Source of the DNA: Verrucomicrobiia bacterium
GTDB taxonomy: Bacteria; Verrucomicrobiota; Verrucomicrobiia; Limisphaerales; JADJPG01
DNA: 64,000 bases
Direction of reading: 5' to 3'
Assembly: GCA_035577805.1 (NCBI GenBank)
Contig: DATLUX010000292.1
Coordinates: 502 to 64,501, forward strand
The notes beneath the pieces were generated by a model, which did not search any database, was not told where the DNA came from, and was given only the letters and a program-made list of their open reading frames with translations. The position numbers and the translations under genes are program-made. This document shows, in pieces, positions 12,903 through 37,350 of the stretch (positions within the stretch are counted from its first letter, which is position 1; each line of letters starts with the position of its first letter).

Positions 12903-14284
12903 TGAATGCTTCCCAAGCGCCCGACGCCTCAGGCATACTCCCGGGAGCCATGAGCAGGCTGACGCATAATTGCGCGGGAATGGCGCGACGTGATTTTCTG
13001 CAGATCGGAATGGGCGGCGTTCTCGGGCTGGGTTTTTCGGATCTGCTGCGGTTGCGGGCGAACGCAGCGGGCACACCGATCGGGCAAGGGCCGCCGGTGA
13101 ACTGCATTCTGATTTGGCTGGATGGCGGACCCTCGCACTATGAATCGTTCGATCCCAAACCGGATGCGCCCTCAGAGATCCGCGGTGAATTCAAAGCCAT
13201 CCCGACCTCGGCTCCCGGCGTGCAATTCTGCGAAATGGTGCCCGAATTGGCAAAGGTGGCCCACAAGCTGACCATCGTCCGGTCCATTTGCCACAAGGAC
13301 CCCAACCATGGCGGAGGCAACCATTACATGATGACCGGGGCGCCCACGCCGGTGCCGGTGGCGTGCGGGGCTTTTGTCACGTTCCATCCGTCGTTCGGTT
13401 CGGTGGTGTCCTATCATCGCGGGATGCGCGATGGATTGCCGGGGTATGTTTCCATGCCGCAGGTTTCGCGCAGCGGCGGGCCGAACTTTTTGGGAGGCAA
13501 ACACGCGCCGTTTGTGATCGACGGTTATCCGAACAGCGACAGCTTCAAGGTGCGTGACGTTGTTTTGCCGGCGGAAATCAGCGAGGGACGCGCCGCCTCG
13601 CGCCGGGATTTGCGCGGCACGTTGGATCGGATGAAGCGTTACGCCGATCGGCTGGCGGAAGATCCGGCGGTTTCCTTTGACCAATATTATCAACAAGGCG
13701 TGGATCTGGTCTTATCGCCCAAGGCCCAGGCGGCTTTCGACATTCAGCGCGAAGATCAGAAGGTCCGCGAGGCTTATGGCCGGAATGATTTTGGCCAGCG
13801 CCTGTTGTTGGCGCGCCGTTTGGTGGAGGTGGGAGTCTCCTGGGTCACGGTCTATAACGGTGGCTGGGATCATCACACCAAGATTTTCACGGCGTTCAAA
13901 GGCAGCCAGGGGAAACAAATGGATCAAGGGATGGCCGCGCTCATCTCGGATTTGGATCAACGCGGGTTGCTCGAGCGGACGCTGGTGATCCTGCTGGGCG
14001 AATTCGGGCGCACGCCCAAAGTGAACAAGGACGCCGGCCGCGATCATTGGCCACACGCGATGTCGATCTTGATGGCCGGAGGCGGCATTCCTGGCGGGCA
14101 GGTGGTGGGCGCCACCGATGCCAAAGGTTATTACGCGTCCGAGAACGTTTATCGGCCGGAAGATTTCGCCGCGTCGCTTTATACCAAGATGGGGATTGAT
14201 CCGGCGCAGGTGTTGCATACCAACACGGGCCGTCCGGTGCAATTGGTCAATAACGGTCGCTTGATCAAGGAACTGTTTGTCTAG
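12902..14284 (+). CDS. DUF1501 (sulfatase-like fold) protein with a Tat signal
   Basis: MARRDFLQIGMGG is a twin-arginine motif, so the true start may be Met17 or Met27 of the track ORF. GGPSHYESFDPKP, DHHT and GRDHWP are DUF1501 hallmarks. Confidence 0.85.
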   Translation: MNASQAPDASGILPGAMSRLTHNCAGMARRDFLQIGMGGVLGLGFSDLLRLRANAAGTPIGQGPPVNCILIWLDGGPSHYESFDPKPDAPSEIRGEFKAIPTSAPGVQFCEMVPELAKVAHKLTIVRSICHKDPNHGGGNHYMMTGAPTPVPVACGAFVTFHPSFGSVVSYHRGMRDGLPGYVSMPQVSRSGGPNFLGGKHAPFVIDGYPNSDSFKVRDVVLPAEISEGRAASRRDLRGTLDRMKRYADRLAEDPAVSFDQYYQQGVDLVLSPKAQAAFDIQREDQKVREAYGRNDFGQRLLLARRLVEVGVSWVTVYNGGWDHHTKIFTAFKGSQGKQMDQGMAALISDLDQRGLLERTLVILLGEFGRTPKVNKDAGRDHWPHAMSILMAGGGIPGGQVVGATDAKGYYASENVYRPEDFAASLYTKMGIDPAQVLHTNTGRPVQLVNNGRLIKELFV

Positions 14285-16113: not shown

Positions 16114-17592
16114 TTAGGCGAACAATTCATGCACCGGCTGGGCGCCTTCGAAGCCGGTGAGCCGCTGGTCGAGGCCTTGAAAGCGGTACGTCAAATGTTC
16201 GTGATCCAGGCCGAGGGCCGCCAGGATGGTGGCATGGAAATCACGCACATGCACCTTGTTCACCGCCGCTTTAAATCCGATCTCGTCGGTTTCCCCATAA
16301 TGAGAACCGCCCCGCGCGCCGCCGCCCGCCAGCCAGACCGTAAACGCGTGCGGATTATGATCGCGACCGGGTTTGTCTCCCTTTTGGGAAACCGGCAGGC
16401 GCCCGAATTCGCCCCCCCAGATGACCAGGGTCTCGCCCAGTAACCCGCGGCTCTGTAGATCCTCGAGCAACGCCGCGACGGGCTGATCGGTCTCCAGGGC
16501 GAACCCGCGGTGATTGCCGATCAAATCGGCATGGCAATCCCAGCTGAGCTGGTTTTCCATGCCGCCGGAGTAAATCTGCACAAAGCGCACGCCGCGTTCG
16601 ACGAGGCGCCGGGCCATGAGACATTGGGTGGCGAAATGGGCGCAATGTTTTTGGTCCAGGCCGTAGAGGCGGCGCGTTGCTTCGGATTCGCGGGTGACAT
16701 CGAACGCCTCCGGCGCCGCCGTCTGCATGCGATAAGCCAGCTCAAAGCTCTGAATGCGGGCGTTCAACTCGTTTTCGGCGGCGCTGTGCTGGGAGTGTTG
16801 TTGGTTGAACCGGGCCAATAGATCCAGCTGCGCGCGTTGCCGCTGATCAGTCAGAGCCGGCGGCCGCTTCAGGTTGTCGATCGGTTCACCTTGTGGCCGC
16901 AGCCAGGTGCCCTGGAAAACGCCAGGAAGAAAGCCCGCTCCCCAATTGTTGGCATTGCCCTTGGGCAGACCACGGTTCAAGGGGTCGCTCATGACCACAA
17001 AAGCCGGCAGGTTCGCGCTCTCGGAGCCGAGGCCATAGGTGGCCCAGGATCCAACGCACGGAAACCCCATCCGCGTTACCCCGGTGTTCATCATGAACAA
17101 GGCCGGGCTATGGTTGTTGGACTGGGTCCAGCAGGAATGAATGAACGCCATCTTGTCCACCTGCCGCGACAATTGCGGAAACAAATCGCTGACCCACGTC
17201 CCGCTTTGGCCATGCTGCCGCCATTGGAACGGCGATTTCATGAGCGGCCCAACTGCGTCCTGAAAGAATCCGGTCTTGTTATCGAAGCCTTCGAGCTTCT
17301 GACCATCGCGTTTGGCCAGCGCCGGTTTGTAATCCCAGGTATCGACCTGACTCGGCCCGCCATTGGCGAAAATCCAAATCACGGCCTTGGCCCGAGCGGG
17401 GACATGCGAACGTTTAGGGGCCAGAGGCAACAACGCAGTCGCGCTGGCGGCGCTGGTGGCGTGCAGCAACCGGGACGGCTGGAGCAAAGTGCTCAGCGCG
17501 ATCCAACCCAGCCCGCCACCCGCGCGGCGCAACAGTTCGCGCCGGCTCAGAGCGAGCCCGTGCTGACGGCGAGCAAACATCGTCGAGTCCAT
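16114..17592 (-). CDS. DUF1501 protein with a Tat signal
   Basis: The protein is 492 aa. It has SRRELLRRAGGGLGW (Tat), ANGGPSQVDTWDYKP and GRDHNPH. Confidence 0.85.
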   Translation of the reverse strand: MDSTMFARRQHGLALSRRELLRRAGGGLGWIALSTLLQPSRLLHATSAASATALLPLAPKRSHVPARAKAVIWIFANGGPSQVDTWDYKPALAKRDGQKLEGFDNKTGFFQDAVGPLMKSPFQWRQHGQSGTWVSDLFPQLSRQVDKMAFIHSCWTQSNNHSPALFMMNTGVTRMGFPCVGSWATYGLGSESANLPAFVVMSDPLNRGLPKGNANNWGAGFLPGVFQGTWLRPQGEPIDNLKRPPALTDQRQRAQLDLLARFNQQHSQHSAAENELNARIQSFELAYRMQTAAPEAFDVTRESEATRRLYGLDQKHCAHFATQCLMARRLVERGVRFVQIYSGGMENQLSWDCHADLIGNHRGFALETDQPVAALLEDLQSRGLLGETLVIWGGEFGRLPVSQKGDKPGRDHNPHAFTVWLAGGGARGGSHYGETDEIGFKAAVNKVHVRDFHATILAALGLDHEHLTYRFQGLDQRLTGFEGAQPVHELFA

Positions 17593-23207: not shown

Positions 23208-24158
23208 TTAGAAGAATCGATCCTGGAACAAACGCGGTTCGGGAGACGGCCCTACCGGCCACGGGGCGGCGAAAGCCTCCTTGAGCCGAGCGGGCAGGGC
23301 CCCCAGCTCGCGATTAGGGTCGTCGGGTGAGGCTGGTTGCGGCGGGGCGGTGGGCGCGGATGGCGGTTGGCCCCCTTCCAAGGCGAGGGTCGGGCAGGGA
23401 GTATCGGGTGAAGCGGCCTCGATCCGCACATGCTGGGCGCCGGCCCGGGTGAGCACCGTGCTCACGGCAGCATGGGCGAGTTCAGGGCGATTGCAATCGC
23501 TGCTGAGATGGCCAAGGTACAAGTGCCGCAGCTCGGCGGAAACGATCTGTCCGGCGAGTTGGGCGGCGGCTTCGTTGGAGAGGTGGCCGTGCCGGCTAAG
23601 AATGCGCTGTTTGGTGCTCCAGGGCCGCCGCAGATCGTCTTGCAACAGTTTCACATCGTGATTGGCCTCCAGGACGAGGGCGTGCGCGGGCCGAACCCGT
23701 TCGATGACCAGGCGGGGGGCATGCCCCAGATCCGTCAGAAACCCGATGTTTCCGGAGGGTGTGCGGAGAAGGAACCCGACCGGGTCATAGGCATCGTGCG
23801 GGATGGTGAAGGTTTCGATCAGGACATCGCCGATGTCAAAAGTGCCGCCGGTGCTGAAGATGCGGAAATCCAGGGGCTGCCCGAATTGCAGTTGGATGGC
23901 TTGTTTGGTGAGGCGATTGCAGTAGATGGGGATGCGCAGTTTGCTGGCGAGCACGCCCAGACCCTGAATGTGATCGGTGTGCTCATGTGTAACCAGAATT
24001 CCACTTAAGTTTTCCGGAGTTCGTCCGATTCCCAGCAAGCGGTGTCGGATCTGGCGCGCGCTCAATCCCGCGTCGATCAACAGTCGCGCGTCCTCGGTTT
24101 CCAGGTAAGCGCAGTTGCCGCTGGATCCGCTGGCGAGAATCGTGAACCGGGCAGGCAC
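23208..24158 (-). CDS. MBL-fold metallo-hydrolase
   Basis: HEHTDH is the HxHxDH metallo-beta-lactamase motif. The N-terminal fold is YycJ-like, and the C-terminal tail is Pro/Ala-rich. Confidence 0.85.
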   Translation of the reverse strand: MPARFTILASGSSGNCAYLETEDARLLIDAGLSARQIRHRLLGIGRTPENLSGILVTHEHTDHIQGLGVLASKLRIPIYCNRLTKQAIQLQFGQPLDFRIFSTGGTFDIGDVLIETFTIPHDAYDPVGFLLRTPSGNIGFLTDLGHAPRLVIERVRPAHALVLEANHDVKLLQDDLRRPWSTKQRILSRHGHLSNEAAAQLAGQIVSAELRHLYLGHLSSDCNRPELAHAAVSTVLTRAGAQHVRIEAASPDTPCPTLALEGGQPPSAPTAPPQPASPDDPNRELGALPARLKEAFAAPWPVGPSPEPRLFQDRFF

Positions 24159-24465
24159 CTGGCGACGTTAGGAAGAGCGACACGAATGGGCAATCCGAAT
24201 CGTACAAAAACCCCACGATCCGCTCAGTGCATGAACGACGGGAAGAAAGGAATCGCGGCGACATCGGCCAGGGCTCCCGGGCGCCGGTCGATCAGTGAGC
24301 CGCCGTTTTCGCGGGCGACGCGGCCATTCGCCCGGAGCCCGCTGAAGAAAAGTCGGAAAAGTCGGGACATTGACAATGAAATTCTAAGCGCGACCGCCCG
24401 GGAAAAAGCACGTCCCGTTCCCATTTGCCCTTGTCTTCTCAGTTTTCCCCGCATTTAATCCGCAC

Positions 24466-25968
24466 GTGGCACAAGGCCTCTATTTATCGCAGAAGATGTC
24501 GTTGCAGCAGGTGCTGGCACCCCAGCTCCAGCAGTCGCTGGCCCTGTTGCAGGCCCCCACCCTCGAACTCAAAGCCCTCGTCGAACAGGAACTCCAGCAA
24601 AACCCGCTCCTTGAAGAGGTCCAGGCCGAAGACCAGGAGCAAGTCGAAAAGCCCGAACGCGAAGGCGATACCGCCCTCATCAGCCAGGCCGACCCCGCGG
24701 AACCCCCCGCCGATGTCAACTTTGACCCCGCCACCGAAAAGGCTAATAGCGAGCCCGTCGACGATTTTCAGGCCGAGTTCGAACGGTTGACCCAGTTGGA
24801 CCAGGAATGGCGCGATCACTTCGCCGAAACCAGCATCCCCATGCGCACCTCCCCCGAGGAGGAGGAACGGCGCCAGTTCATGTTCGATTCCCTGGCTTCA
24901 GGCACTTCGCTCCAGGAACATCTCCTTGAACAAGTGCGCCTTTCGGAGGTCACCGATGACCAACGGCCGGTCGCCGAGATGATCATCGGCAACATCGATG
25001 ATTATGGCTACCTCAAGGCGACCATCGAGGAAATGGCCTTGGGCACCGGTCTGCCCACCGAACTCATCCTGGGCGTGCTCAACGTCATTCAGACCTTCCA
25101 CCCCGCCGGCGTCGGTGCACGCGACCTGCGCGAATGCCTCCTCCTTCAGCTCGAACGACAAAACAAACAGCACACCAGCGAATACCGCATCGTCCACGAC
25201 TTCATGGAAGCCCTCGGCAAACGGCGCATCCCTGAGATCGCCCGCGGCTTGGGCCAGGACGTTGTCGATGTCCAGAAAGCCATCCAACGCATCGGCTTGC
25301 TGGAACCTCGCCCCGGACGCGCCTTCCTCCCCGATAACGATCAATACGTTCTGCCGGAAGTGTTCGTGATCAAGTCGGGCGAAGATTTCGTCGTCTCCAC
25401 CAATAATGAGCAGATCCCGCATCTGCGCATCAGCAACACCTACAAGGATCTGATGGCGCAGGCGGATTCTTCCTCCGAAGTTCGCGAATATATCCGCGAA
25501 AAGATCCGCGCCGGGAAATTCCTCATCAAAAGCCTCCACCAACGCCAACAAACCATCCGCAACATCGCCACTGAGATCGTCAATCGGCAACGCGAATTCA
25601 TGCAGAAAGGCGTCGCGTACCTCAAGCCCTTGACCATGGTCCAGGTCGCCGAAGTCGTCGGGGTCCACGAAACCACCGTCAGCCGCGCTGTTTCCGGCAA
25701 ATACATGCAGACCCCGCAGGGCATCTTCGAGATGAAGTATTTCTTCACCTCCGGGATCCAGACGGCCACCGGCGAAGGCATGTCCAATACCAGCGTCAAG
25801 GACATGATCGCCGATATCTTCAAAGCCGAAGACCCGGGCAAACCGCTCTCCGACCAGGAAGTCGTCCTCATGCTCTCCGAACGCGGCATCGTCATCGCCC
25901 GCCGCACCGTGGCCAAGTACCGGTCCGAATTGAATATCCTGCCTTCCAACCTGCGCAAGGTGTATTGA
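24466..25968 (+). CDS. rpoN: RNA polymerase sigma-54 factor
   Basis: The N-terminus MAQGLYLSQKMSLQQVLAPQLQQSLALLQ aligns with RpoN region I. There is an HTH at QVAEVVGVHETTVSRAV, and ARRTVAKYR is the RpoN box. Confidence 0.92.
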   Translation: MAQGLYLSQKMSLQQVLAPQLQQSLALLQAPTLELKALVEQELQQNPLLEEVQAEDQEQVEKPEREGDTALISQADPAEPPADVNFDPATEKANSEPVDDFQAEFERLTQLDQEWRDHFAETSIPMRTSPEEEERRQFMFDSLASGTSLQEHLLEQVRLSEVTDDQRPVAEMIIGNIDDYGYLKATIEEMALGTGLPTELILGVLNVIQTFHPAGVGARDLRECLLLQLERQNKQHTSEYRIVHDFMEALGKRRIPEIARGLGQDVVDVQKAIQRIGLLEPRPGRAFLPDNDQYVLPEVFVIKSGEDFVVSTNNEQIPHLRISNTYKDLMAQADSSSEVREYIREKIRAGKFLIKSLHQRQQTIRNIATEIVNRQREFMQKGVAYLKPLTMVQVAEVVGVHETTVSRAVSGKYMQTPQGIFEMKYFFTSGIQTATGEGMSNTSVKDMIADIFKAEDPGKPLSDQEVVLMLSERGIVIARRTVAKYRSELNILPSNLRKVY

Positions 25969-25974
25969 GCGGTT

Positions 25975-26310
25975 CAGGGTTACCGGTTCACGGTTCACGG
26001 TTCACGGTTCACGGTTCACGGTTCACGGCTTGAGGTTCAGCGAAGCCTGCGCAGCGGTGGAAGGTCCAAATGACTGAATCCCTTGAAGCAGGAAGATTGT
26101 GAGGAACCCTGAACCCTGAACCCTGAACCCTGAACCCTGAACCCTGAACCCTGAACCCTGAACCCTGAACCCTGAACCGTTGAACCCTGAACCCTGAACC
26201 CTGAACCCTGAACCCTGAACCGTTGAACCGTGAACCGTGAACCGTGAACCGTGAACCGTGAACCGTGAACCGTGAACCGTGAACCGTGAACCGTGAACCG
26301 TGAACCCACT
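25975..26310. repeat. Composite heptanucleotide microsatellite: (GGTTCAC)~7, then (GAACCCT)~15 and (GAACCGT)~12. The first block is the inverse complement of the last.
   Basis: This was read directly. The block at 25983-26035 (ggttcacggttcacgg...) is the reverse complement of the block at 26222-26305 (gtgaaccgtgaaccg...), so a long hairpin is possible. Track ORFs 26009..26326(-) and 26037..26381(-) are artefacts of this repeat (GSRFTVH repeats). Confidence 0.9.
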
Positions 26311-26311
26311 T

Positions 26312-26327
26312 TGTGAAATGTTTCACA
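26312..26327. promoter_or_regulatory. Candidate CRP/FNR-family binding site, TGTGA-N6-TCACA
   Basis: TGTGAAATGTTTCACA is a perfect match to the CRP consensus half-sites. It lies about 47 nt upstream of the ATG of the cupredoxin/oxidase cluster and directly abuts the CGTGAAC repeat array. Each repeat unit carries a GTGAA half-site-like core. Confidence 0.4.
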
Positions 26328-26373
26328 AATCCCTTGCAGGCCCGTAAAGTCGAGTGCTAGCCTGCCTCTGCTC

Positions 26374-27108
26374 TTGTTCATGAACTATCCGATTGCATCT
26401 ATGAAAATGTCGCTTCCCTGTTTGTCCCTGTCCCTGGCGTTCCTGGCCGGTTCAGTACCCGGGTTGTTGGCGGGTGAAATCACCGGCAAGGTAGTCCTGA
26501 AAGGCACCCCTAAGCCGGAGATCAAGATTGATCTGGTCCCGATGTGCGGTGCGGCGAACCCCAATAAGGATAATGTGACCACGCGCCATTACGTGGTCGG
26601 GCCCGGCGGCGGGTTGGCTAATGTGTTTGTTTATTTGAAAGACGCCAAGGCGGCTCCGGCCAAGGGACCGACTCCGGTGTTGGATCAGGTGGGTTGTATG
26701 TATGAGCCGTACGTGTTTGGGCTGGTGGTGAATCAGCCCTTCAAAATTCACAACTCAGATGCCCTCCTGCACAACGTGCATGCCACTCCGAAATTGAACA
26801 AGGAATTCAACTTCGGCCAGCCGCTCAAAGGCCAGGAGAACGAAAAAAGCTTTGATCAGGCGGAAGTAATGGTGCGCGTGAAATGCGACGTGCATCCGTG
26901 GATGTTGGCCTACATCGGGGTATGCGATCATCCCTACTTTGCCGTGACGGACAAAGACGGGAACTACAAGATTTCGGACGTGCCGGATGGCAAGTACACG
27001 ATCGTTGCTTATCATGTGAAGACCCACGGCGCGACCAACCCCGGCCTGAGCAACCCCATCGAGGTCAAGGGAACAGCCAAAGCGGATTTCACCATCGAAA
27101 TTCCGTGA
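26374..27108 (+). CDS. Secreted cupredoxin-like (amicyanin-type ligand pattern) blue-copper protein. It is a probable electron donor to the downstream aa3 oxidase.
   Basis: There is a signal peptide. LHNVHA resembles the amicyanin PHNVHF first-His region. KCDVHPWM is Cys-x2-His-x2-Met, the same spacing as amicyanin CTPHPFM. A C-terminal DGNYKISDVPDGKYTIVAY beta-sandwich motif is also present. Confidence 0.55.
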   Translation: MFMNYPIASMKMSLPCLSLSLAFLAGSVPGLLAGEITGKVVLKGTPKPEIKIDLVPMCGAANPNKDNVTTRHYVVGPGGGLANVFVYLKDAKAAPAKGPTPVLDQVGCMYEPYVFGLVVNQPFKIHNSDALLHNVHATPKLNKEFNFGQPLKGQENEKSFDQAEVMVRVKCDVHPWMLAYIGVCDHPYFAVTDKDGNYKISDVPDGKYTIVAYHVKTHGATNPGLSNPIEVKGTAKADFTIEIP

Positions 27109-27163
27109 ACCGCGCCCCAGCCGACGTCGGGAGGCCTGTGTTGCCCTCAGGGCGAAAAGCGGA

Positions 27164-28276
27164 GTGCCAGAAGCGTTTCTCGTGAAACGTTGCGCTCACC
27201 ATCGCTGGCTGCATCGGTTCGCTTTACTGACGGCGTTGGTCACCTTTTGCCTGATCTGGGTAGGCGGCTTGGTGACGAGCCACGGGGTCGGCATGGCCGT
27301 GCCGGATTGGCCGACGACCTATGGGTATAACATGTTCTTCTTTCCGGTCTCACAATGGCTGGGAGGGATCTTTTACGAACACACCCATCGGCTGGTGGCT
27401 TCCGGCGTGGGCTTCCTCACGATCATCCTGGCGATCTGGACTTGGGCGCAGGAAGAACGGCGCTGGCTACGGAACCTGGGCTGGATCGCGCTGGGCGCAG
27501 TCGTCTTGCAAGGCGTGTTGGGAGGACTGCGGGTCACGCAGATGAAGGATGAGATTGGGATCTTTCACGCCGCGCTGGCGCAGCTTTTCTTCGTGCTGAC
27601 AGGGGCGATCGCCTTGTTCACTTCGCCGTGGTGGCAACGCGGCAGCCCCGGAAAGATGACTATTTACGCAGGTGGCCGCTTCCGATATCTATTCGCGGCG
27701 GTGACCGGCCTAATCTTCGTGCAACTCGTCCTCGGCGCGTCCATGCGTCATCAGCATGCGGGCCTGGCCATCCCGGATTTTCCGCTGGCTTATGGGAAGG
27801 TCTGGCCGTCGGCGGATGAAGCTTCGGTGGAACGCTACAACCGGGACCGGCGCGAAGTAACGGCGTTGAACCCGATCACCGCGGGACAAATTCATTTGCA
27901 GATGACTCATCGTTTGGCGGCGGTCGCGATTCTGGCGGCAGTGGCGTGGGCAGCCGGGCGAACGCGCCAACGACTGGGTTGGGGCTCTCCCTTGGCGCGC
28001 CTGGCGGCGGTGTGGCTGGGGCTAATCGTCGTGCAAGGTGCACTGGGCGCTTTCACCATCTGGACCAACAAAGCCGCGGATATCGCGACAGCTCACGTGG
28101 CGGTGGGGGCATTAAGTTTGATGACGGGCTCGCTGCTCGTTTTGATGGCGGCTCGCCTCGAGCTCGGGGCAAGTGAGTGTGCCGGCAGCGCCACGCCGGC
28201 CGCGGCCGCAGCTGGCGAGTTGGCCGCGAGCGCCCGCGTCACGCCATCCGGCTCGGAACTCCCTGCTGGCCGATGA
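27164..28276 (+). CDS. ctaA: Heme A synthase (COX15/CtaA)
   Basis: It has 8 predicted TM segments with conserved His pairs (EHTHR, MTHRLAAV, ATAHVAVG) typical of CtaA. Its stop overlaps the ctaB start as ATGA. Confidence 0.85.
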   Translation: MPEAFLVKRCAHHRWLHRFALLTALVTFCLIWVGGLVTSHGVGMAVPDWPTTYGYNMFFFPVSQWLGGIFYEHTHRLVASGVGFLTIILAIWTWAQEERRWLRNLGWIALGAVVLQGVLGGLRVTQMKDEIGIFHAALAQLFFVLTGAIALFTSPWWQRGSPGKMTIYAGGRFRYLFAAVTGLIFVQLVLGASMRHQHAGLAIPDFPLAYGKVWPSADEASVERYNRDRREVTALNPITAGQIHLQMTHRLAAVAILAAVAWAAGRTRQRLGWGSPLARLAAVWLGLIVVQGALGAFTIWTNKAADIATAHVAVGALSLMTGSLLVLMAARLELGASECAGSATPAAAAAGELAASARVTPSGSELPAGR

Positions 28277-29187
28277 AAGCCACTGCTTCTCTGAGTCCCT
28301 CAAAATCGTCGACGGCCCCGGCGGAGAAGGCGCTGTTGCAGGTCTTGGGTGAACTCGTCAAAGCCAGGCTGACGTTCCTGGTGCTGCTCACCACGGCGGT
28401 CGGCTTTTATTTGGGCTGGCGTGGCACGCTGGATGGGTGGTTGCTGGCGCACACGCTGCTGGGCACGGCGCTGGTGGCATGCGGGGCGGCCGCGCTTAAT
28501 CAATTGAGCGAACGCGAACATGATGCGCGAATGCGGCGCACGGCGGATCGGCCGCTGCCTTCAGGCCGGCTGCAACCCGAGACGGTGCTCATCCTGGGCG
28601 GGGCGAGTTCCGTGGTGGGTTTGATTTACCTGGCGTTGGCGGTGAACGCGTTGACCAGCCTGCTGGGCGCCGTGACGTTGGGCAGCTATCTGTTTGTCTA
28701 CACGCCACTCAAGCGCGTGACTTGGCTGAACACGGCGGTCGGAGCGGTGCCTGGCGCCTTGCCGCCGCTGATGGGCTGGACGGCTGCTCGGGGCCAATTG
28801 AGCGGGGAAGGCTGGGCGTTGTTCGGCATCCTCTTTTTCTGGCAGATCCCGCACTTTTTGGCGATCGCCTGGTTATACCGGGAAGAATATGAGAAGGCCG
28901 GCTTCGTGATGTTGCCATCGGTGGATCGGGGCGGAGTACGGACGGGCCGCCAAGCCGTGAGTCATACGATGGGGCTGTTGATCGTGAGCTTGACGCCTTT
29001 TTTGTTGCACCTGACGGGCGTGGTTTACGTCTGCGGGGCGTTGTTGTTGGGCGCGATATTTCTGGTGTGCGCCGCGCAGTTCTCTCGGCAACTCACCGCG
29101 GGTCGCGCGCGCCAGTTATTTTTTGCTTCGATCCTGTATCTGCCATTGTTATTGGGGTTAATGGTACTGGATAAACTTAAGTATTAA
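28273..29187 (+). CDS. ctaB: Protoheme IX farnesyltransferase (heme O synthase)
   Basis: I placed the start at MKATASL (ATGA overlap with ctaA). The track ORF starts at 28177, inside ctaA. The UbiA-family motifs are present: ALNQLSEREHDARMRRTADRPLPSG and YREEYEKAGF. Confidence 0.85.
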   Translation: MKATASLSPSKSSTAPAEKALLQVLGELVKARLTFLVLLTTAVGFYLGWRGTLDGWLLAHTLLGTALVACGAAALNQLSEREHDARMRRTADRPLPSGRLQPETVLILGGASSVVGLIYLALAVNALTSLLGAVTLGSYLFVYTPLKRVTWLNTAVGAVPGALPPLMGWTAARGQLSGEGWALFGILFFWQIPHFLAIAWLYREEYEKAGFVMLPSVDRGGVRTGRQAVSHTMGLLIVSLTPFLLHLTGVVYVCGALLLGAIFLVCAAQFSRQLTAGRARQLFFASILYLPLLLGLMVLDKLKY

Positions 29188-29338: not shown

Positions 29339-31168
29339 ATGAGCGCCACGACACACGCTGGGCAACTGCACGACGTTCACCAGGTTGAGCATCATCACGA
29401 GCTCAACTTCTGGCAGAAATACATCTTTTCCACGGACCACAAGATCATCGGCATTCAGTACGGCTTCATGGCGTTGCTGTTCTTGTTCTTCGGGTTTTGC
29501 CTGATGCTGATGATGCGCTGGTCGATCGCCTTTCCGGACAAGCCCATCCCGGTGGTGGGCGGACTCCTGCAATGGGTCCTGGGCAAGGAAGCAGTGCCGA
29601 ACGGGACGATGGGGCCCGATCTTTACAATTCCTTCGGAGCCATGCACGGCACGATCATGGTGTTCCTGGCCATTGTGCCCCTGGCCTTCGCCGCTTTCGG
29701 CAATTACGTGGTGCCCCTGCAAATCGGCGCCCCCGACATGGCGTTTCCACGGGTGAACATGGCCAGCTTCGATTGTTTTTTCCTGGGCGGCGTGGTGATG
29801 TTCTCGAGCTTCTTCATTCCGGGCGGCGCGGCCAAGTCCGGGTGGACCTCCTATTCACCGCTGGCGACGCTGGCGGAGCGCACGTATCTGGTGAATGGCC
29901 AGACCTTCTGGATCATCGGCATGGTGCTGCTTATCACCTCGTCGTTGTTGGGCGCGGTGAACTTCATCGCGACTATCATCCAGTTGCGGGCCCCAGGCAT
30001 GACCTGGATGCGGTTGCCCTTTTTCTGTTGGGCTCAATTCGTGACGGCGTTCCTGCTCTTGCTGGCGTTTCCGCCGCTGGAAGCCGCCGGCGTCATGCAG
30101 TTGATGGATAACCTGGCCGGCACCAGCTTCTTTCTGCCCAGCGGTCTGATGGTGGCCGGCACCACGCCCATCCCGATCAGTGGCGGAGGCAGCCCGTTGT
30201 TGTGGCAGCATCTGTTCTGGTTTTTGGGGCATCCGGAGGTTTACGTGCTGATCTTGCCGGGTATGGGGGTGGTGGCGGAAGTGATCGCCAACAACACGCG
30301 CAAACCGCTCTGGGGATACAAATCGCTGGTTTACTCGGTGCTGGCCATCGGGTTCATCTCTTTCATCGTGTGGGCCCATCACATGTACCTCACCGGCATG
30401 GGCACCAAGATCAGCACCTTCTTCCAGACGACCACGATGATCATCTCCATCCCTTCGGTGATCATTCTCACCTGCCTCTTCATCTCCCTTTGGGGCGGGT
30501 CCATCCGGTTCAACACCCAGATGCTCTTCGCCCTCGCATTCCTCCCCATGTTCGGCATCGGCGGACTGACCGGGTTGCCACTTGGGTTTAACTTTTCGGA
30601 TCTGCATTTGCACGACACCTATTATGTGATCGCCCATTTCCATTATGTGGTGGCGCCGGGCACGATCTTCGCCTTGTTTGCGGGCATTTATCATTGGTTC
30701 CCAAAGATCACGGGCCGGCTGATGAACGAAACGCTCGGGCGCGTGCATTTCTGGCTCTCGTTGATCTTCATGAATGCTGTGTTCCAACCCATGTTCCAGC
30801 AGGGCATGGCGGGCATGATCCGGCGCATGTATAACGGCGGCGCCACCTATGCGGCCACTCCCACCGAATCAGGGTTGTCTCCGCACATCCTGGGCCTGAA
30901 CAAATATGTTTCGATGGCCGCCTGGTTCCTTTGCCTGGCCCAGCTTCCATTTATCATCAATTTCTTCTGGACCCTCTGGCGCGGCAAAAAGACACCGGAA
31001 AATCCGTGGCACGCCACCACCGTGGAATGGGATACGCCCACCCCGCCGCCGCACGGTAACTTCAGCCGGCCTGTGCAAATCCATCGGGGTCCATACGAAT
31101 ACAGCGTGCCCGGACACAGCGCCGATTTCACCATGCAAACGCAACCTGAAAAAGGTGCCAAGCACTGA
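29339..31168 (+). CDS. ctaD: Cytochrome c oxidase subunit I
   Basis: WFLGHPEVYVLILPGMG, HHMYLTG, YYVIAHFHYVV and the 12-TM layout are canonical COX1. Confidence 0.95.
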   Translation: MSATTHAGQLHDVHQVEHHHELNFWQKYIFSTDHKIIGIQYGFMALLFLFFGFCLMLMMRWSIAFPDKPIPVVGGLLQWVLGKEAVPNGTMGPDLYNSFGAMHGTIMVFLAIVPLAFAAFGNYVVPLQIGAPDMAFPRVNMASFDCFFLGGVVMFSSFFIPGGAAKSGWTSYSPLATLAERTYLVNGQTFWIIGMVLLITSSLLGAVNFIATIIQLRAPGMTWMRLPFFCWAQFVTAFLLLLAFPPLEAAGVMQLMDNLAGTSFFLPSGLMVAGTTPIPISGGGSPLLWQHLFWFLGHPEVYVLILPGMGVVAEVIANNTRKPLWGYKSLVYSVLAIGFISFIVWAHHMYLTGMGTKISTFFQTTTMIISIPSVIILTCLFISLWGGSIRFNTQMLFALAFLPMFGIGGLTGLPLGFNFSDLHLHDTYYVIAHFHYVVAPGTIFALFAGIYHWFPKITGRLMNETLGRVHFWLSLIFMNAVFQPMFQQGMAGMIRRMYNGGATYAATPTESGLSPHILGLNKYVSMAAWFLCLAQLPFIINFFWTLWRGKKTPENPWHATTVEWDTPTPPPHGNFSRPVQIHRGPYEYSVPGHSADFTMQTQPEKGAKH

Positions 31169-31183: not shown

Positions 31184-31993
31184 ATGGAAATTCCCTACGT
31201 TGTTAAAGCGCGCCCGGACACGGGCTTATTCAACGCCAAGGTTGGCATCTGGCTCTTCCTGGCCTCCGAGGTCATGCTTTTCGGCGCCTTGTTTTCGGCC
31301 TACATCCTGTTGCGAGTAGGTGCCGATCCGGGAAGCTGGCCCCAGGGTCTGTTGAATGTGCCCATCGGCACGTTCAACACCACTGTGCTCATTTCCTCCA
31401 GCGTCACCGTCGTGCTCTCCTGGGCCGCCTTGAAAATGGGCCGCTTCAACACCTACCGAAAGTACCAGGCTATCACCATCCTTTGCGCCCTGGGCTTTCT
31501 CGGGATCAAATCGTTCGAATACCGCGATAAATGGACGCACTACGAGATCTGGAAGACCGACGGCACGCGCGTCACCGGGCACATCGAGGGCTCGCCCTAT
31601 TTTTGGAATACCGCCACGCTGACCAAGAAGAAGCTTGACCAAATCATGTTCGCGCCGGATGCCCGGCATTACAATGACCCGCCAGCCGAACACCATGTCG
31701 AAGCGCATGCCAAGCATGAGTTTGCCCCGGTCAAGACTTCGGACATCAAAAGGCTTTCGGCCTTCGTGCCGTCGCACAGCACCTTTTTTGCGATCTACTT
31801 CACGCTGACGGCCCTGCATGGTCTGCACGTGTTGGCAGGCGCGCTGGTGATCGCCTATATTTGGGGTCCGGGCGCGCGGATGTGGAAGACCGACCCGGAA
31901 CGCTACACCAACCGCGTTGAGGTCTCGGGCTTGTTCTGGCATTTCGTCGACTTGGTTTGGATCTTCCTCTTTCCGGTGCTCTATTTGCTGTGA
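31184..31993 (+). CDS. ctaE: Cytochrome c oxidase subunit III
   Basis: FLASEVMLFGALFSAYILLR, HGLHVLAG and WHFVDLVWIFLFPVLY are COX3 signatures. Confidence 0.9.
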   Translation: MEIPYVVKARPDTGLFNAKVGIWLFLASEVMLFGALFSAYILLRVGADPGSWPQGLLNVPIGTFNTTVLISSSVTVVLSWAALKMGRFNTYRKYQAITILCALGFLGIKSFEYRDKWTHYEIWKTDGTRVTGHIEGSPYFWNTATLTKKKLDQIMFAPDARHYNDPPAEHHVEAHAKHEFAPVKTSDIKRLSAFVPSHSTFFAIYFTLTALHGLHVLAGALVIAYIWGPGARMWKTDPERYTNRVEVSGLFWHFVDLVWIFLFPVLYLL

Positions 31994-32067: not shown

Positions 32068-32436
32068 ATGAGCGACGCCCATTCGCCTGAGGCCATCAAA
32101 AAGCATGTCCGTACCTACTTGGTGATCTTTGGGGCCCTGTTGGCCGGGACCATCGTGACGGTTTGGTTGCGGTCGATCCATTTTGGCGATTTCTGGATCA
32201 CGGTGGCCATCGCGCTGACCGTGGCCACGATCAAAGCCAGCCTGGTGGCCGGATTCTTTATGCATTTGATCTCCGAGCGCAAAGCCATCTACGCCACGCT
32301 CGCGACCACCGTGTTCTTCTTTGCCGCGATGATGTACTTGACCGTGTGGGCGCGGGTGCAGGTGCCGAGGGGTTCGGAATACCTCATGCGCCAGGAAGTG
32401 CCCCACCCGGCTGTGCGCAACGGAGGTGCGCTCTGA
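32068..32436 (+). CDS. ctaF: Cytochrome c oxidase subunit IV (bacterial CtaF/COX4_pro family)
   Basis: The protein is 122 aa with three TM helices. The opening HVRTYLVIFGALLAGTIVTV is typical of the prokaryotic subunit IV family, and it is positioned right after coxIII. Confidence 0.55.
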   Translation: MSDAHSPEAIKKHVRTYLVIFGALLAGTIVTVWLRSIHFGDFWITVAIALTVATIKASLVAGFFMHLISERKAIYATLATTVFFFAAMMYLTVWARVQVPRGSEYLMRQEVPHPAVRNGGAL

Positions 32437-33126: not shown

Positions 33127-33909
33127 ATGGACAAAATCCTAGGACTTCCCGAGCTTGCCTCCAAACACGGCGTCGACGTGGACCGGTTTATCATCTACAT
33201 CCATTATTTGATGATCGCTTTGTTCATCGGATGGACGGCCTATTTTCTCTACGCGATTTGGCGCTTTCGCAGCAGTCGTCATCCCAAAGCCGATTATGTG
33301 GGTGTGACCAGCCACGCTTCCAGTTACCTTGAACTGGCGGTGGCCGCGGTGGAAATCCTGCTTCTGGTCGGGTTTGCCATTCCCATGTGGGCGAAAGTGG
33401 TTGATCAAGGGGAGTTGGACGTGTCGAAAGCGCAGTTGATCCGGGTGACCGCCCAGCAGTTTGCCTGGAGCGGCCGTTATCCTGGACCGGACGGCAAGTT
33501 TGGCAAACAGGACATCAAGTTGGCGGCCCCGAGCAACAAACTGGGTTTGTGGCAAATGGATGACAAACTGAAGAAGGAAGATCCTGACGGCAAGGACGAC
33601 GTGGTGCTGGCTGACAGCGTGGAGATCGTGGCGCCGGTGGATACGGATGTAATCGTCTCGCTCAGTTCGTTGGATGTGATTCATTCGTTTAAAGTGCCCG
33701 CCATGCGCATGACGCATGACGCCATCCCTGGCATGCGGATCCCGGTTCATTTTCATCCCACCAAGACCGGCACCTTCCAGATCAATTGCGCCCAGCTTTG
33801 CGGTGTCGGTCATTCCACCATGAAAAGCACTTTCAAGGTGGTTTCGACCAATGAGTTTGAGGTCTGGCTGAAATCCAAGGCCGGCTCGGCTCCAGTGAAC
33901 TTTGAATAG
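33127..33909 (+). CDS. ctaC: Cytochrome c oxidase subunit II (CuA site, no fused cytochrome c domain)
   Basis: There are two N-terminal TM helices. HSF...CAQLCGVGHSTM supplies the CuA ligands (H, C-x3-C, H, M). There is no CxxCH motif, so this is aa3-type rather than caa3-type. Confidence 0.85.
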   Translation: MDKILGLPELASKHGVDVDRFIIYIHYLMIALFIGWTAYFLYAIWRFRSSRHPKADYVGVTSHASSYLELAVAAVEILLLVGFAIPMWAKVVDQGELDVSKAQLIRVTAQQFAWSGRYPGPDGKFGKQDIKLAAPSNKLGLWQMDDKLKKEDPDGKDDVVLADSVEIVAPVDTDVIVSLSSLDVIHSFKVPAMRMTHDAIPGMRIPVHFHPTKTGTFQINCAQLCGVGHSTMKSTFKVVSTNEFEVWLKSKAGSAPVNFE

Positions 33910-33936: not shown

Positions 33937-34626
33937 ATGAACGGCCCGGCGCGTAGTCTGCAGTGGATCGTGTGGGGAGGAATGGCGGTGACGATGGCGA
34001 TAATCCTGGCCGCGTTTGTCTTGCAGAACCGGCGTGCGCGCTCTGCTTCCGCTTCCACCTCCGCCGCGGCTGAATTCAGTGAATCGGGGCTCGCTGCCCG
34101 GGGCCCGTTGCCGGTCTTGTTCCGTGTCCCTGACTTCGCGTTGACCAACCAGGACGGGCAACCCATCACTTTGGATTCCCTGCGCGCTCAGGTTTGGCTG
34201 GCCGATATCATTTTTACCCGCTGCAGCGGTCCCTGTCCGGCGATGGCCCGTCGCACCGCCGAATTGCAAGGTCTCATCAACCCGCAATGGCCGGTGAAAT
34301 TTGTCACCCTGACGACTGACCCGGATTACGATACGCCGGCAGTGCTTCGCGCTCATGGACAACGGTATGGCGCTCAATCCGGTCGCTGGCATTTTCTGAC
34401 CGGGCCAAAGAAGGACGTGGTGCAGTTGGCCGTGCACGGGTTGAAACTGACGGCCCTGGACAAGGACGCCGGGCAACAAGAGACGCCGACGGATCTGTTC
34501 ATTCATTCCACCCAATTCATCCTGGTTGATGGCCAAGGCCAGGCCCGCGCGGTGTTTGAGAACGAAGACGCCGAGATGCCGGCAAAAGTGATGAAGGCCG
34601 TGCAACGGTTATTGCAGGAGAAATGA
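33937..34626 (+). CDS. SCO1/SenC copper chaperone
   Basis: It has an N-terminal TM segment. FTRCSGPCP is the thioredoxin-like CxxxC, with a downstream His (FIHSTQF). Confidence 0.85.
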   Translation: MNGPARSLQWIVWGGMAVTMAIILAAFVLQNRRARSASASTSAAAEFSESGLAARGPLPVLFRVPDFALTNQDGQPITLDSLRAQVWLADIIFTRCSGPCPAMARRTAELQGLINPQWPVKFVTLTTDPDYDTPAVLRAHGQRYGAQSGRWHFLTGPKKDVVQLAVHGLKLTALDKDAGQQETPTDLFIHSTQFILVDGQGQARAVFENEDAEMPAKVMKAVQRLLQEK

Positions 34627-34627: not shown

Positions 34628-35077
34628 ATGAATCTCGCGGTTTTGCCCCCGTTAAACGCGGCCCTCAACGGCTTTAGTGCCTGTTGCCTGGTCGCCGGCT
34701 TGATTCTAATCCGGCGCGGTCGCCGCGATGCCCATCATCGTTGCATGTTGGCGGCCGTCACGGCTTCCGCCCTCTTCCTGGTTTCCTATCTCTATTACCA
34801 TTTCCATGCTGGCCGCACCGTGTTTCGGGACCCGGCTTGGTTCCGGCCGATTTATCTGACGCTGCTGCTGACTCACACGGTCCTGGCGGTGACGATCCTG
34901 CCGATGATCATCGTCACCCTGTTGCGGGCTTTACGGGGCGCATTCGATCGTCATAAGAAGATTGCGCGCTGGACCTGGCCGCTCTGGATGTATGTGTCTG
35001 TAACCGGCGTGCTCATCTATTTTTTGCTTTATCAGATCTTCCCCCAAGCCGGAGCGGCCAGCGTGGGCCCGCGCTAG
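34628..35077 (+). CDS. DUF420-type 4-TM membrane protein (commonly linked to SCO/oxidase genes)
   Basis: The protein is 149 aa with 4 predicted TM helices. It sits immediately after SCO1 with a 1-nt gap. Confidence 0.5.
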   Translation: MNLAVLPPLNAALNGFSACCLVAGLILIRRGRRDAHHRCMLAAVTASALFLVSYLYYHFHAGRTVFRDPAWFRPIYLTLLLTHTVLAVTILPMIIVTLLRALRGAFDRHKKIARWTWPLWMYVSVTGVLIYFLLYQIFPQAGAASVGPR

Positions 35078-35316
35078 TGCTAGTGATGTGTCCCTTATAT
35101 AGGGGACACATCACACAGATCGAGCGCGATGCCAGTTTTCCTGACCCAAGGAATTGTGGTGGTTTTGCGGTCACCCCCTTGGAATGGGCACGTTGGCGGT
35201 GTGGTCGCAATACGTCTGAACGGCCTTCTTCCTGCTTTTCCAGCTCACCAAACCCTCAAAATAAGGGCTTTACAGCGCCAGCCTGCGTTTCGCAAACTGC
35301 TCTGGTGTCCGTGATA

Positions 35317-37350
35317 ATGCACGAAAGGGATCGGCTGAGTGGCCAGCCGAGCACAACCGAACTGTCGTCCAGCCAGCAACAGCTTCTTGAAACCGCCATC
35401 CAGCGGTCCCAAAACTACCTTTTAGGCATCCGAAAACCTGAGGGATTTTGGGTCGGCGAACTGATGGTCGATTCCACCCTGGTTTCCGACACGGTGGCGT
35501 TTCATCATTGGGACGGCAGCGTCGACCCGGAATGGCAGCGCAAAGCGGTCAATCATATCTCCTCGATGCAACTGCCCGATGGGGGTTGGAACATTTATTA
35601 TGGGGGCCCGTCCGAGGTTAATGCGACCATCAAAGCGTATCTGGCCTTGAAGTTGGCCGGTGTGCCGGTGACGGATCCGCGGATGTTGAAGGCGCGGGAA
35701 GTGGCGCTGAGTTTGGGGGGTGTTCCGCGCATGAACACGTTCTCCAAATTGTATCTGGCTTTGTTGGGGTTATTTCCCTGGGATTACGTGCCCACCATTC
35801 CCAGCGAGGTCATCCTGATCGGCAAATGGTTTTATGTGAACTTCAACGAGATGAGCAACTGGAGCCGGTCCATGCTTGTCCCGTTGGCCATCATTAACCA
35901 TTTCAAGCCGACGCGTCCGGAGAATTGTCCCGTGACGTTGGATGAGCTTTATCCTGAAGGGTTCCACGAGCGCGACCTGGCCCTGCGGCCCGATCCCGAA
36001 CGGTACACGTGGCGCAACTTCTTCCTCTGGCTCGATAAGCTTCATAAGTTTGTCGAGAACAACAATCTTCGGCCATTTCGCAAGCTGGCCTTGAAGAAGG
36101 CGGAGCGTTGGATGTTGGAACGCTTCGAGGGCAGCAATGGATTGGCGGCCATTTTCCCGGCCATGCTCAATGCGCTCATCGCGCTCAAGGCGTTGGGTTA
36201 TGCGCCCAACCATCCTGAAGTCATTCGCGCCGTCCGTGAACTCAAGAACCTCGAGCACGAAGAAAAGGATTCCGTGCGCATCGAGCCTTGTTTTTCGCCG
36301 GTATGGGATACGGCCATCGTCACGATTTGCCTCCGCGAATCGGGCATCCCGGCCGAGGATCCGCGCATGAAACAGGCCGTGGATTGGTTGATCAGCAAGG
36401 AAATCCGCGTCCGCGGCGATTGGTTCTACAAGAATCCGGCCCACGTCGAGCCCAGCGGCTGGGTCTTCGAATACGAAAATAAATGGAACCCGGACGTCGA
36501 CGATACCGCCATGGTTTTGTTGGCTTTGCGACAGGTGCCGACCGATGATCCGGGGCGACGCGACGCCTGTTTCCAACGGGGCCTGAAGTGGATGATGACT
36601 TTCCAGTGTCGGGACGGCGGCTGGGCGGCCTTCGACAAGGACTGCACCAAAGGCGTGCTCGAGAAGGTGCCTTTCGCTGATCACAACGCCATGCTGGACC
36701 CGGAATGCGCCGATATCACCGCGCGCATCCTGGAGTTGCTGGCGTATGAAGGTTATTCCCTGACGCACCCGCAAGTGCTCAAGGCCGTTCAATTCGTGCG
36801 CGATCACCAGGAGGAAGACGGTTCCTGGTATGGACGCTGGGGCGTCAACTACATCTATGGCACCTGGCAGGTTCTCCGCGGCCTGCGCGCGCTGGATTTC
36901 AAGATGAACCAACGCTGGCTCATCAAGGCCCGCGATTGGCTGGAAAGCGTGCAGAACCCCGACGGCGGCTGGGGCGAACGCTGCAATACCTACGATGACC
37001 CCGTCTTCAAAGGCAAAGGTCCCAGCACCGCTTCTCAAACCGCTTGGGCCGTCATGGGCTTATGCGCCTTCGACGATCCCAATCGCCCCAGTATCCGGCG
37101 CGGCATCGATTACCTCGAGCGCACCCAAAACCAGGATGGTTCCTGGACCGAACACGAAACCACCGGCACCGGGTTCCCCAAAGTCTTTTATCTGAAATAC
37201 GACATGTATCGCAACGCCTGGCCGTTGCTGGCTTTGGCCACCTACAAGAAACTCCTCGAAGGATTCGCCGGACGCGTCAATGGCCACGCCCATGCCCATC
37301 TGAATGGCCATTCCCAGCGGCTCCACGAAGAGATCGCTGCCCACCGGTAA
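35317..37350 (+). CDS. shc: Squalene-hopene cyclase
   Basis: The track ORF begins at a GTG at 35077 that overlaps the previous stop. I placed the start at MHERDRL (Met81 of the track ORF). NPDVDDTAMVLLAL is the DxDDTA catalytic motif. There are several QW motifs (QNPDGGWGE, QNQDGSW, EEDGSWYGRWG). Confidence 0.9.
   Translation: MHERDRLSGQPSTTELSSSQQQLLETAIQRSQNYLLGIRKPEGFWVGELMVDSTLVSDTVAFHHWDGSVDPEWQRKAVNHISSMQLPDGGWNIYYGGPSEVNATIKAYLALKLAGVPVTDPRMLKAREVALSLGGVPRMNTFSKLYLALLGLFPWDYVPTIPSEVILIGKWFYVNFNEMSNWSRSMLVPLAIINHFKPTRPENCPVTLDELYPEGFHERDLALRPDPERYTWRNFFLWLDKLHKFVENNNLRPFRKLALKKAERWMLERFEGSNGLAAIFPAMLNALIALKALGYAPNHPEVIRAVRELKNLEHEEKDSVRIEPCFSPVWDTAIVTICLRESGIPAEDPRMKQAVDWLISKEIRVRGDWFYKNPAHVEPSGWVFEYENKWNPDVDDTAMVLLALRQVPTDDPGRRDACFQRGLKWMMTFQCRDGGWAAFDKDCTKGVLEKVPFADHNAMLDPECADITARILELLAYEGYSLTHPQVLKAVQFVRDHQEEDGSWYGRWGVNYIYGTWQVLRGLRALDFKMNQRWLIKARDWLESVQNPDGGWGERCNTYDDPVFKGKGPSTASQTAWAVMGLCAFDDPNRPSIRRGIDYLERTQNQDGSWTEHETTGTGFPKVFYLKYDMYRNAWPLLALATYKKLLEGFAGRVNGHAHAHLNGHSQRLHEEIAAHR

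Follow-up and report, generated by a model that had tools for sequence, protein, structure and literature searches.

Expression of an aa3/caa3-type cytochrome oxidase cluster in a Verrucomicrobiia bacterium appears to be controlled from a conserved 18-bp operator. The DNA analysed is a stretch of 64 kb (the window, from contig DATLUX010000292.1), and the site lies between rpoN, the gene for sigma-54, and genes for a cupredoxin-like protein, haem A synthesis and the oxidase. Its core is the palindrome TGTGAAATGTTTCACA at 26312-26327, an exact TGTGA-N6-TCACA, located as a preliminary description of the DNA had given it. That description suggested that the palindrome may be a CRP/FNR-type operator of respiration genes. 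Conservation, promoter spacing and oxidase linkage support it as a functional operator of the respiratory cluster; the CRP/FNR label is not settled, and the sequence points to NADH/NAD+ sensing by Rex over cAMP- or oxygen-type sensing. Heptamer arrays fill the spacer between rpoN and the operator. From their sequence and distribution, these arrays are a separate, lineage-specific element, which the operator does not need and which does not set its function. An operator of the oxidase promoter and a separate repeat element, as two independent features, form the best joint explanation, which we hold with slightly more confidence than doubt.

The palindrome and its putative promoter

The symmetry of the site exceeds what had been described. 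The sequence TTTGTGAAA-TG-TTTCACAAA at 26310-26329 has arms of 9 nt. The exact TGTGA-N6-TCACA pattern occurs once in the whole window, at the palindrome, and the expectation from dinucleotide shuffles is a mean of 0.01, with any match in 1 of 100 shuffles. With one mismatch permitted, 2 matches are found against 1.16 expected. Because this one-mismatch count equals expectation, exactness alone is a thin argument.

Relatives of the locus were fetched via homologues of the first gene of the cluster. The set comprised 80 genome loci, 12 site-carrying metagenome loci and several close relatives. The operator alignment was anchored on TGTGA-N6-TCAC only, and collapsing near-duplicates gave 32 non-redundant sites. 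The orthologous position is occupied in 22 genome loci (at most one mismatch), and further in 12 metagenome loci and 3 close relatives. Lack of conservation upstream of orthologous oxidase operons was named in the preliminary description as a point that would refute its reading, and the site is in fact kept there: 32 non-redundant Verrucomicrobiota loci have the 18-mer TTGTGAAANNTTTCACAA at the orthologous position. The first-gene products of the operator-bearing loci are 42-60% identical to that of the window, and in these metagenome-assembled genomes (MAGs) the palindrome lies 80-140 nt upstream of the orthologous first gene. Every core base, the T at -1 and, within the 'N6', AA and TT are shared by 32/32 sites, and A follows TCACA in 29/32. 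Apart from this A, only the central two bases of the 18-mer vary, and they vary freely. Invariant arms around a free centre are the expected signature of a dimeric protein that contacts two 8-base half-sites.

The palindrome could also be a chance product of the AT-richer intergenic sequence, in keeping with the one-mismatch count, or a by-product of the adjoining repeats, whose units have GTGAA in common with the half-site. Exact matches are expected at only 0.01 per window, and 32 diverged loci without repeats keep the site with a centre that varies. Both origins are refuted by this conservation in relatives without repeats, and their probability is practically nil.

The site is found (at most one mismatch) in 22 of the 51 genome loci with ctaA, ctaB or cox1 downstream and in none of the 29 without (Fisher p = 1e-5). 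Furthermore, rpoN is the upstream neighbour only in close relatives of the window. The operator therefore belongs to the oxidase cluster and not to rpoN. Degenerate operators, TTGTGAAAAATTCATCAT and TTGTGAAAACTTTCCAAG (4 and 3 mismatches), stand ~90 nt upstream of the first-gene homologue in L013 and L026, with one good half-site kept.

Promoter elements were counted in 31 non-redundant loci. A TTG that begins the -35 element (TTGCnn/TTGAnn) is placed 6 nt downstream of the operator in 26/31 loci. A -10 element, TAnnnT, follows at a spacer of 16-18 nt in 29/31, and 25 of these 29 are TG-extended. Transcription is predicted to start near 26370, which would put the operator centre at about -50.5 and give a leader of 10 or 31 nt, depending on whether translation begins at ATG 26380 or 26401. 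With a good -35 and an extended -10 of its own, the promoter looks self-sufficient, that is, repressible and not activator-dependent. The distance of ~47 nt from the palindrome to the first gene given in the preliminary description holds for the mechanical ORF (open reading frame) start, TTG 26374; the annotated ATG starts give 53-74 nt.

Several other readings of this region were rejected. A program-called promoter, TTCACA-17-TAAAGT, has a TAAAGT that is not conserved in L003, L004 or the distant loci. In TTTCACAAATCCCTTGC, read as a sigma-54 promoter, the GG/GC spacing is unsuitable by inspection. An operator of the LacI family (TTGTGAGC-GCTCACAA-like) is unlikely because the central dinucleotide varies and there is no conserved CG. 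The FNR box, TTGAT-N4-ATCAA, is not present in the sequence and was excluded.

Rex-type or CRP/FNR-type control

The 18-mer TTGTGAAANNTTTCACAA (26311-26328) has 0 mismatches to the Rex operator consensus, TTGTGAA-N4-TTCACAA. The same 14 consensus bases are invariant or nearly so in the 32 orthologous sites. In this alignment, the bases that are invariant and yet unspecified in the CRP core are exactly the Rex-specific ones. The Rex operator of S. aureus is TTGTGAAW4TTCACAA, which was first described as TGTGAn6TCACA, and its sites lie in promoters or a few bp away (Pagels et al., PMC2883068). Liu et al. gave the same consensus for Streptomyces, where the targets are cytochrome oxidase, haem, nuo and atp operons, and Rex represses such operons in Streptomyces and Bacillus (PMC5355995). 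The site described here likewise combines the 18-bp consensus with a position adjoining the putative promoter of respiratory genes. A Rex-type NADH/NAD+ repressor is favoured, with modest confidence, over a factor of the CRP/FNR type.

A dimeric regulator on 26311-26328 would sit against the -35 element and the upstream region contacted by the C-terminal domain of the RNA polymerase alpha subunit (UP/alpha-CTD region). Its most likely action there would be repression. The operator belongs to the promoter from which the cupredoxin-like gene, ctaA, ctaB and the cox/sco genes would be transcribed. If the factor is of the Rex type, it would release the oxidase and haem A genes as NADH accumulates.

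The regulator was sought with Pfam on ~30 window ORFs and with phmmer on six-frame ORFs of the window and 205 loci, with B. subtilis Rex (identical to PDB 2vt2) and E. coli CRP as queries. The outcome for Rex and several further points weigh against this explanation. Neither the 64-kb window nor 1.56 Mb of loci, together a small fraction of any genome, yielded a Rex protein (PF06971/PF02629). Protein searches and cluster look-ups for Rex in Verrucomicrobiota named other phyla only, and no link of Rex to Verrucomicrobiota was found in the literature. The operator core is equally perfect as a CRP-type core. There is one site per locus only, so no regulon is available for comparison, and the strict spacing between operator and -35 would suit an activator too. 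The promoter and start site are themselves inferred from conservation only. Finally, 29 of the 51 oxidase-linked loci are without the operator, so regulation by this factor would be clade-limited; CP170459.1 (L046) is one of the operator-bearing genomes, and OY969763.1 (L031), L007 and L009-L012 are among those that lack the site. Together with the degenerate sites, these loci indicate that the operator was lost or never gained in part of the family.

The searches behind the phylum names were of three kinds. A search with the Thermus Rex protein returned Deinococcota only. When 1.84 billion representatives were searched with a Rex profile, 1184 clusters, listed without names, were obtained at E < 1e-30; ten of these were looked up, and one carried a name, Armatimonadota. 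The names returned by a 73-sequence Rex profile search were only Gemmatimonadota, Methylomirabilota and Eisenbacteria. Rex is annotated in these Gram-negative soil phyla, Gemmatimonadota, Methylomirabilota, Eisenbacteria and Armatimonadota, which counts for the Rex reading.

Alternatively, a CRP/FNR-family factor, responsive to cyclic nucleotides (cNMP) or to redox state, may activate or repress the oxidase cluster in the manner of GlxR-cAMP. The palindrome has the exact CRP-class core, TGTGA-N6-TCACA, and strict spacing to the -35 element is a requirement of activators. As CRP/FNR proteins are near-universal, the genome probably encodes a cognate one. Control of aa3 oxidase genes by a CRP-type protein is also known from GlxR (PMC7026483). 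Against this, the AA..TT inside the 'N6' and the flanking T/A are invariant (32/32, or 29/32 for the final A) and match the Rex consensus. The CRP consensus, AAATGTGATCTAGATCACATTT, is not matched by these inner and flanking bases as the Rex consensus is. CRP activators of classes I and II are centred near -41.5 or near -61.5/-71.5, and the centre at about -50.5, counted from the predicted start, fits neither geometry. Nor does the promoter look dependent on an activator, given its good -35 and extended -10. The search for a Crp/Fnr regulator that the preliminary description had suggested was run on the 64-kb window and the 1.56 Mb of loci only, a small genome fraction, and gave no homologue of E. 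coli CRP at E <= 1. Control by a CRP/FNR-family factor is possible and, on this evidence, doubtful. Another regulator family takes the remainder of the probability.

The heptamer arrays between rpoN and the operator

The heptamer arrays reported beside the palindrome are real, and the right array stops 5 nt short of the 18-bp site. The left array, (GGTTCAC)x6.4 with a perfect sub-array at 25984-26028, directly follows the rpoN stop codon. It is the reverse complement of the right array, which the preliminary description had missed. The inverted arms reach up to 59 nt at 95% complementarity. The RNA hairpin predicted for the window has -158 kcal/mol (z = -11.5), and a hairpin is predicted in all three array-bearing relatives. 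The arms of GGTTCAN units would thereby form a long hairpin, possibly the 3' end of rpoN or an insulator, which is conjecture. Against a terminator or insulator role, no T-tract terminator was detected. A structured-RNA reading was dropped, with no Rfam match at E <= 1 in 24000-28000. The arm sequence GAACCCTGAACC has no dispersed copies in the window and occurs at this locus only; its sole match in the other loci, in L104, is an ordinary terminator hairpin. As a sequence pattern, the minus strand of the (GAACCCT)n array, (AGGGTTC)n, fits the G-quadruplex pattern G3N4.

The centre between the arms holds AATCCCTTGAAG at 26075-26088, one mismatch from AATCCCTTGCAG, which spans the real -35 (26328-26339). 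It may be a remnant of a promoter-region duplication, or chance. A decayed copy of the operator and -35 was rejected as too weak, since 77 of 2000 shuffles reach the 12 nt with 1 mismatch.

The arrays have a narrow distribution. Inverted heptamer arms are found only in the nearest relatives of the window, L004 (33 of 1556 nt differ downstream of the operator, a 98% relative) and L003 (84% protein identity). In both, the arms are short and imperfect, yet they fold into a long hairpin from the stop codon to the operator. In L187, L149, L151 and L112 the operator and promoter are kept, the heptamers are absent and the spacers are unrelated. L130 has no arrays and hardly any spacer, with only 11 nt between the rpoN stop and the operator. 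Short tandem repeats of different kinds are found in other lineages, 10-30 nt upstream of the same operator: the 10-mer GTTAAACCNN is present four times in L089 (~2340-2395) and L166 and three times in L128, and TGGTGGAT twice in L120 (~150-185). The 10-bp period and GTTAA core are reminiscent of direct-repeat response-regulator sites.

Among near-identical strains, the arrays vary in composition and length. The arm units seen are GGTTCAC, GGTTCAG, GGTTCGG, GGTTTGG and GGTTACC, and unit composition differs among contigs with identical RpoN or an identical first protein. The preliminary description had proposed comparing copy number between strains, and it does vary. Beside the operator there are exactly 4 GTGAACC units in L210-L212 and 12 in the window; L206 and L208, two public contigs of the same strain that start inside the array, have at least 11. 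Copy numbers of the window arrays are to be read as assembly-dependent. The 4-copy and 12-copy alleles have at least 99.8% identity downstream, with the operator and promoter unchanged.

The preliminary description had further suggested that the arrays may modulate occupancy or spacing of the operator, so that copy number could in principle tune expression; the arrays could, for instance, act as decoy half-sites (GTGAA/TTCAC). The difference in copy number between near-identical strains (4 against at least 11-12) and the GTGAA contained in the units agree with this, as does the weak binding of Rex to half-sites (PMC5355995). The last base of the array is 26306, and the operator (26311), the -35 and the -10 all lie downstream of it, so that copy number cannot alter the spacing among them. 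Of the 7 bases of a half-site, the units share only 5, and nowhere do two units face each other as an inverted pair at the required distance. Most operator-bearing lineages are free of arrays, and operator and promoter are identical in both alleles. In L004 the arms are mostly GGTTCAG/GGTTCGG and not GTGAAC, so the likeness between array and half-site is recent and probably accidental. With regard to contingency loci, copy-number polymorphism is present, and the repeat is not within the promoter, the operator-promoter gap or a reading frame. Tuning of occupancy or spacing by the array is not supported, and modulation of the operator by the arrays is very improbable.

The segment between rpoN and the operator also differs in orientation. 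Window 26010-26125 aligns to L212, L210 and L211 only as the reverse complement (scores 103, 98 and 98 against 14). L212 differs from the window at 2 of 1655 downstream nt, and such contigs differ at 2-4 of 900-1650. Taken together, these data mean that the whole block is inverted between ~99.9% identical strains. In the other state, the centre is reversed and the rpoN stop is followed, on the sense strand, by G-rich (GGGTTCA/GGGTTCG)n; in L205, L204 and L212 this array starts within a few nt of the stop codon, a placement of the type described by Rehm et al. 2015. The G-rich strand is antisense in the window because of the inversion. In the window, only the minus strand has the pattern of four G3+ runs separated by N1-7; in L212, L205, L204 and L210, only the plus strand has it. 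L004 has the L212 orientation, so the window orientation is probably derived. The two orientations differ in array composition as well, and unrelated sequence takes the place of the centre in L003 and apparently also in L204. The arms would change by slippage, and recombination between them would have flipped the enclosed segment. Orientation tracks the few single-nucleotide polymorphisms (SNPs) that separate sub-strains, and no sample showed both states. This looks like recent recombination between inverted arrays plus slippage, and not like a demonstrated fast switch.

An active, inverton-like switch has also been considered, in which the inverted arrays and their segment flip a promoter, a terminator or the G-quadruplex strand between rpoN and the oxidase operon. 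Contigs that are 99.8-99.9% identical downstream do occur in both orientations, the segment has inverted repeats of 40-60 nt on either side, the G-quadruplex-prone strand changes with orientation, and short-read contigs break repeatedly inside the arrays. However, orientation follows sub-strain SNPs without any sample showing both states, and the arrays differ between the states, which are thus no simple flip partners. No promoter-like or terminator-like site is present in 26029-26103, and no recombinase domain was found with Pfam among the neighbouring genes scanned. The replaced centres in L003 and apparently L204, and the absence of the whole element from other relatives, also speak against a switch, which we regard as unlikely. 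A recombinase-independent flip that moves the G-quadruplex-prone (GGGTTCA)n between the strands of the rpoN 3' region, and so toggles read-through or insulation, is likewise quite unlikely. If it occurs, this would be phase variation of a new kind, with inversion sites made of the tandem repeats themselves.

Short-read contigs (k133-k141) from at least 6 samples break inside the arrays, namely at the starts of L001/L206, L208 and L212 and at the ends of L204 and L205. The breaks suggest that array length varies within samples, or that the arrays of the L205/L212 state exceed k.

Heptamers are common among the perfect arrays (at least 3 copies) of the window, where 8 of 11 have period 7, at five loci; 798 kb of related genome loci contain only 7 period-7 arrays. 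The other short arrays of the window are GCTATCG x3.3-3.9, CCGCTTT x3, AAAGCGG x3 and CCGAATG x4 (751-777, 855-875, 45389-45409 and 55477-55504). Several begin within a few nt of a stop codon. AAAGCGG follows two stops in sense orientation, those of a superoxide dismutase (SOD) gene (minus strand, 855-875) and of a 690-aa ORF ending at 45384.

Neighbouring genes and likeness to known systems

The spacer between rpoN and the oxidase cluster is 25969-26400, and the cluster is co-oriented with rpoN. The rpoN product has 490 aa from ATG 24496, with an identical sequence on two public contigs. The cluster was assigned with Pfam on the window and with gene calls and Pfam on the public contig L001, and the haem A/aa3 oxidase genes follow downstream as the preliminary description had claimed (Table 1).

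Table 1. Positions of rpoN, the spacer elements and the oxidase cluster in the window
Feature	Position	Strand	Remarks
rpoN (sigma-54)	24496-25968	+	Pfam Sigma54_AID, CBD, DBD; stop 1-2 nt before left array
Left hairpin arm, GGTTCAG GGTTACC (GGTTCAC)x6	25970-26028	+	Tandem Repeats Finder (TRF) period 7, 8.4 copies
Unique centre, GGCTTGAGGTTCA + ~64 nt	26029-26103	.	75 nt; opposite orientation in near-identical strains
(GAACCCT)n array	26104-26221	+	x10.7 at 26104-26178, x5.9 at 26181-26221, split by GAACCGTT
Right hairpin arm, (GAACCGT = GTGAACC)x11.9	26224-26306	+	Ends 5 nt before operator
Operator, TTGTGAAATGTTTCACAA	26311-26328	.	Centre 26319/26320; unique in window; conserved; 0 mismatches to Rex consensus
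Putative -35, TTGCAG	26334-26339	+	6 nt past TCACA; from conservation in aligned loci
Putative extended -10, TGcTAGCCT	26355-26363	+	18-nt spacer; from conservation in aligned loci
First gene, secreted 235-aa protein	26401-27108	+	Cupredoxin-like N-domain and transthyretin-like C-domain; alternative in-frame ATG 26380
ctaA	27164-28276	+	Pfam
ctaB	28273-29187	+	Pfam
COX1	29339-31168	+	Pfam
COX3	31184-31993	+	Pfam
COX4	32068-32436	+	Pfam; caa3 subunit IV
Two small ORFs		+	Between COX4 and COX2
COX2	33127-33909	+	Pfam
SCO1	33937-34626	+	Pfam
DUF420	34628-35077	+	Pfam

The first gene had been called a cupredoxin. No Pfam or NCBIfam model makes this call, the N-terminal 150 residues are without a family, and no PDB match is found by sequence; a weak structural likeness of the model supports it. 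The AlphaFold model (predicted local distance difference test, pLDDT, 78.6) has amicyanin, pseudoazurin and plastocyanin as its best PDB matches, with weak E-values. C49, H63, C99, H124, H127, C162, H165 and M168 are invariant and include a C-x2-H-x2-M motif. Homologues are abundant in Verrucomicrobiota metagenomes (2831 matches). The product may be an unclassified cupredoxin-type electron donor for the oxidase. ATG 26380 and ATG 26401 are in frame, 21 nt apart, and gene callers disagree: 6 public contigs of the same strain start at 26401 (235 aa) and 2 at 26380 (242 aa). At the nucleotide level, ATG 26380 and the codons between the two starts are conserved in L003, L004 and L187; L130 and L149 conserve their position (M-x5-S-M-K).

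Elsewhere in the window, a squalene-hopene cyclase (SHC) gene (35077-37350) directly follows the oxidase cluster, and a second SHC-like ORF is found near 1802-3010. There are two DUF1501 genes (12902-14284 and 16114-17592), and at 51549-53696 a Ser/Thr kinase is fused with a phosphonate-type periplasmic binding domain. The ORF at 42511-43308, with no Pfam match, contains (ATGGGG)x5 at 42779-42808, which encodes a Met-Gly repeat.

Transcriptional control is nearly unknown in the soil Verrucomicrobiota of the Pedosphaerales/Limisphaerales type, which are abundant and mostly uncultured. The operator, -35 and extended -10 provide a concrete, testable cis-element for an aa3/caa3-type oxidase and haem A cluster in dozens of MAGs. 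If the factor is Rex, its documented reach would extend to Verrucomicrobiota and to aa3-type oxidases. The case also illustrates how a Rex site can pass for a 'perfect CRP site' when only the five-base cores are considered; CRP and Rex sites were confused in this way in S. aureus too (PMC2883068). The repeat element shows cleanly, in a natural setting, how heptamer arrays act as inverted repeats: strains 99.9% identical differ in its copy number and orientation, and short-read assemblies repeatedly break at it.

The Rex operators of Streptomyces, Bacillus and Staphylococcus share with the site described here the 18-bp TTGTGAA-N4-TTCACAA, a position in or next to the promoter, and terminal oxidase and haem targets (PMC2883068, PMC5355995). 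The known regulons differ in their targets, which include cydABCD, ldh or adhE, whereas here an aa3/caa3-type oxidase, haem A synthesis and a cupredoxin-like gene are concerned. Their sites overlie the -35, the -10 or the start; here the site lies just upstream of the -35. The host phylum here is Verrucomicrobiota, and Rex is a putative factor. GlxR of Corynebacterium glutamicum likewise has TGTGA-N6-TCACA upstream of aa3 oxidase genes (ctaCF, ctaE-qcrCAB and ctaD; PMC7026483). In comparison with GlxR sites, the inner AA..TT and outer T/A are invariant here, the predicted position near -50.5 is atypical, and the promoter looks self-sufficient.

Heptameric simple-sequence repeats are also known from cyanobacteria, as short tandemly repeated repetitive (STRR) sequences. 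The intergenic GGGNATC heptamers of Xanthomonas and Nostoc have a variable copy number, placement rules and G-quadruplex potential (PMC4692102), and TAACTGA heptamers are found in Beggiatoaceae (PMC4679880). Repeats of the GGGNATC type resemble the arrays here in their 7-nt units, variable copies, co-oriented genes and start a few nt from a stop codon. The G3-containing unit here, GGGTTCA, also fits the G-quadruplex pattern, and its sequence differs. Unlike the known heptamer repeats, the arrays here are an inverted pair that forms a predicted hairpin, the enclosed block has been flipped, and the longest array has ~29 copies.

Invertons such as fimS and the invertible promoters of Bacteroides and Clostridioides, as well as the hairpin-loop inversions of non-coding plastid DNA, have inverted repeats around a short segment. 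Both orientations occur in very close relatives, as they do here. In contrast to invertons, the element has no promoter inside and no recombinase nearby, and tandem heptamer arrays, in place of a fixed recombinase site, are its arms. As a variant of the known heptamer repeats, the element is unusual in its inverted arrangement and its flip, and it is closer to the passive flips of plastids than to a programmed switch.

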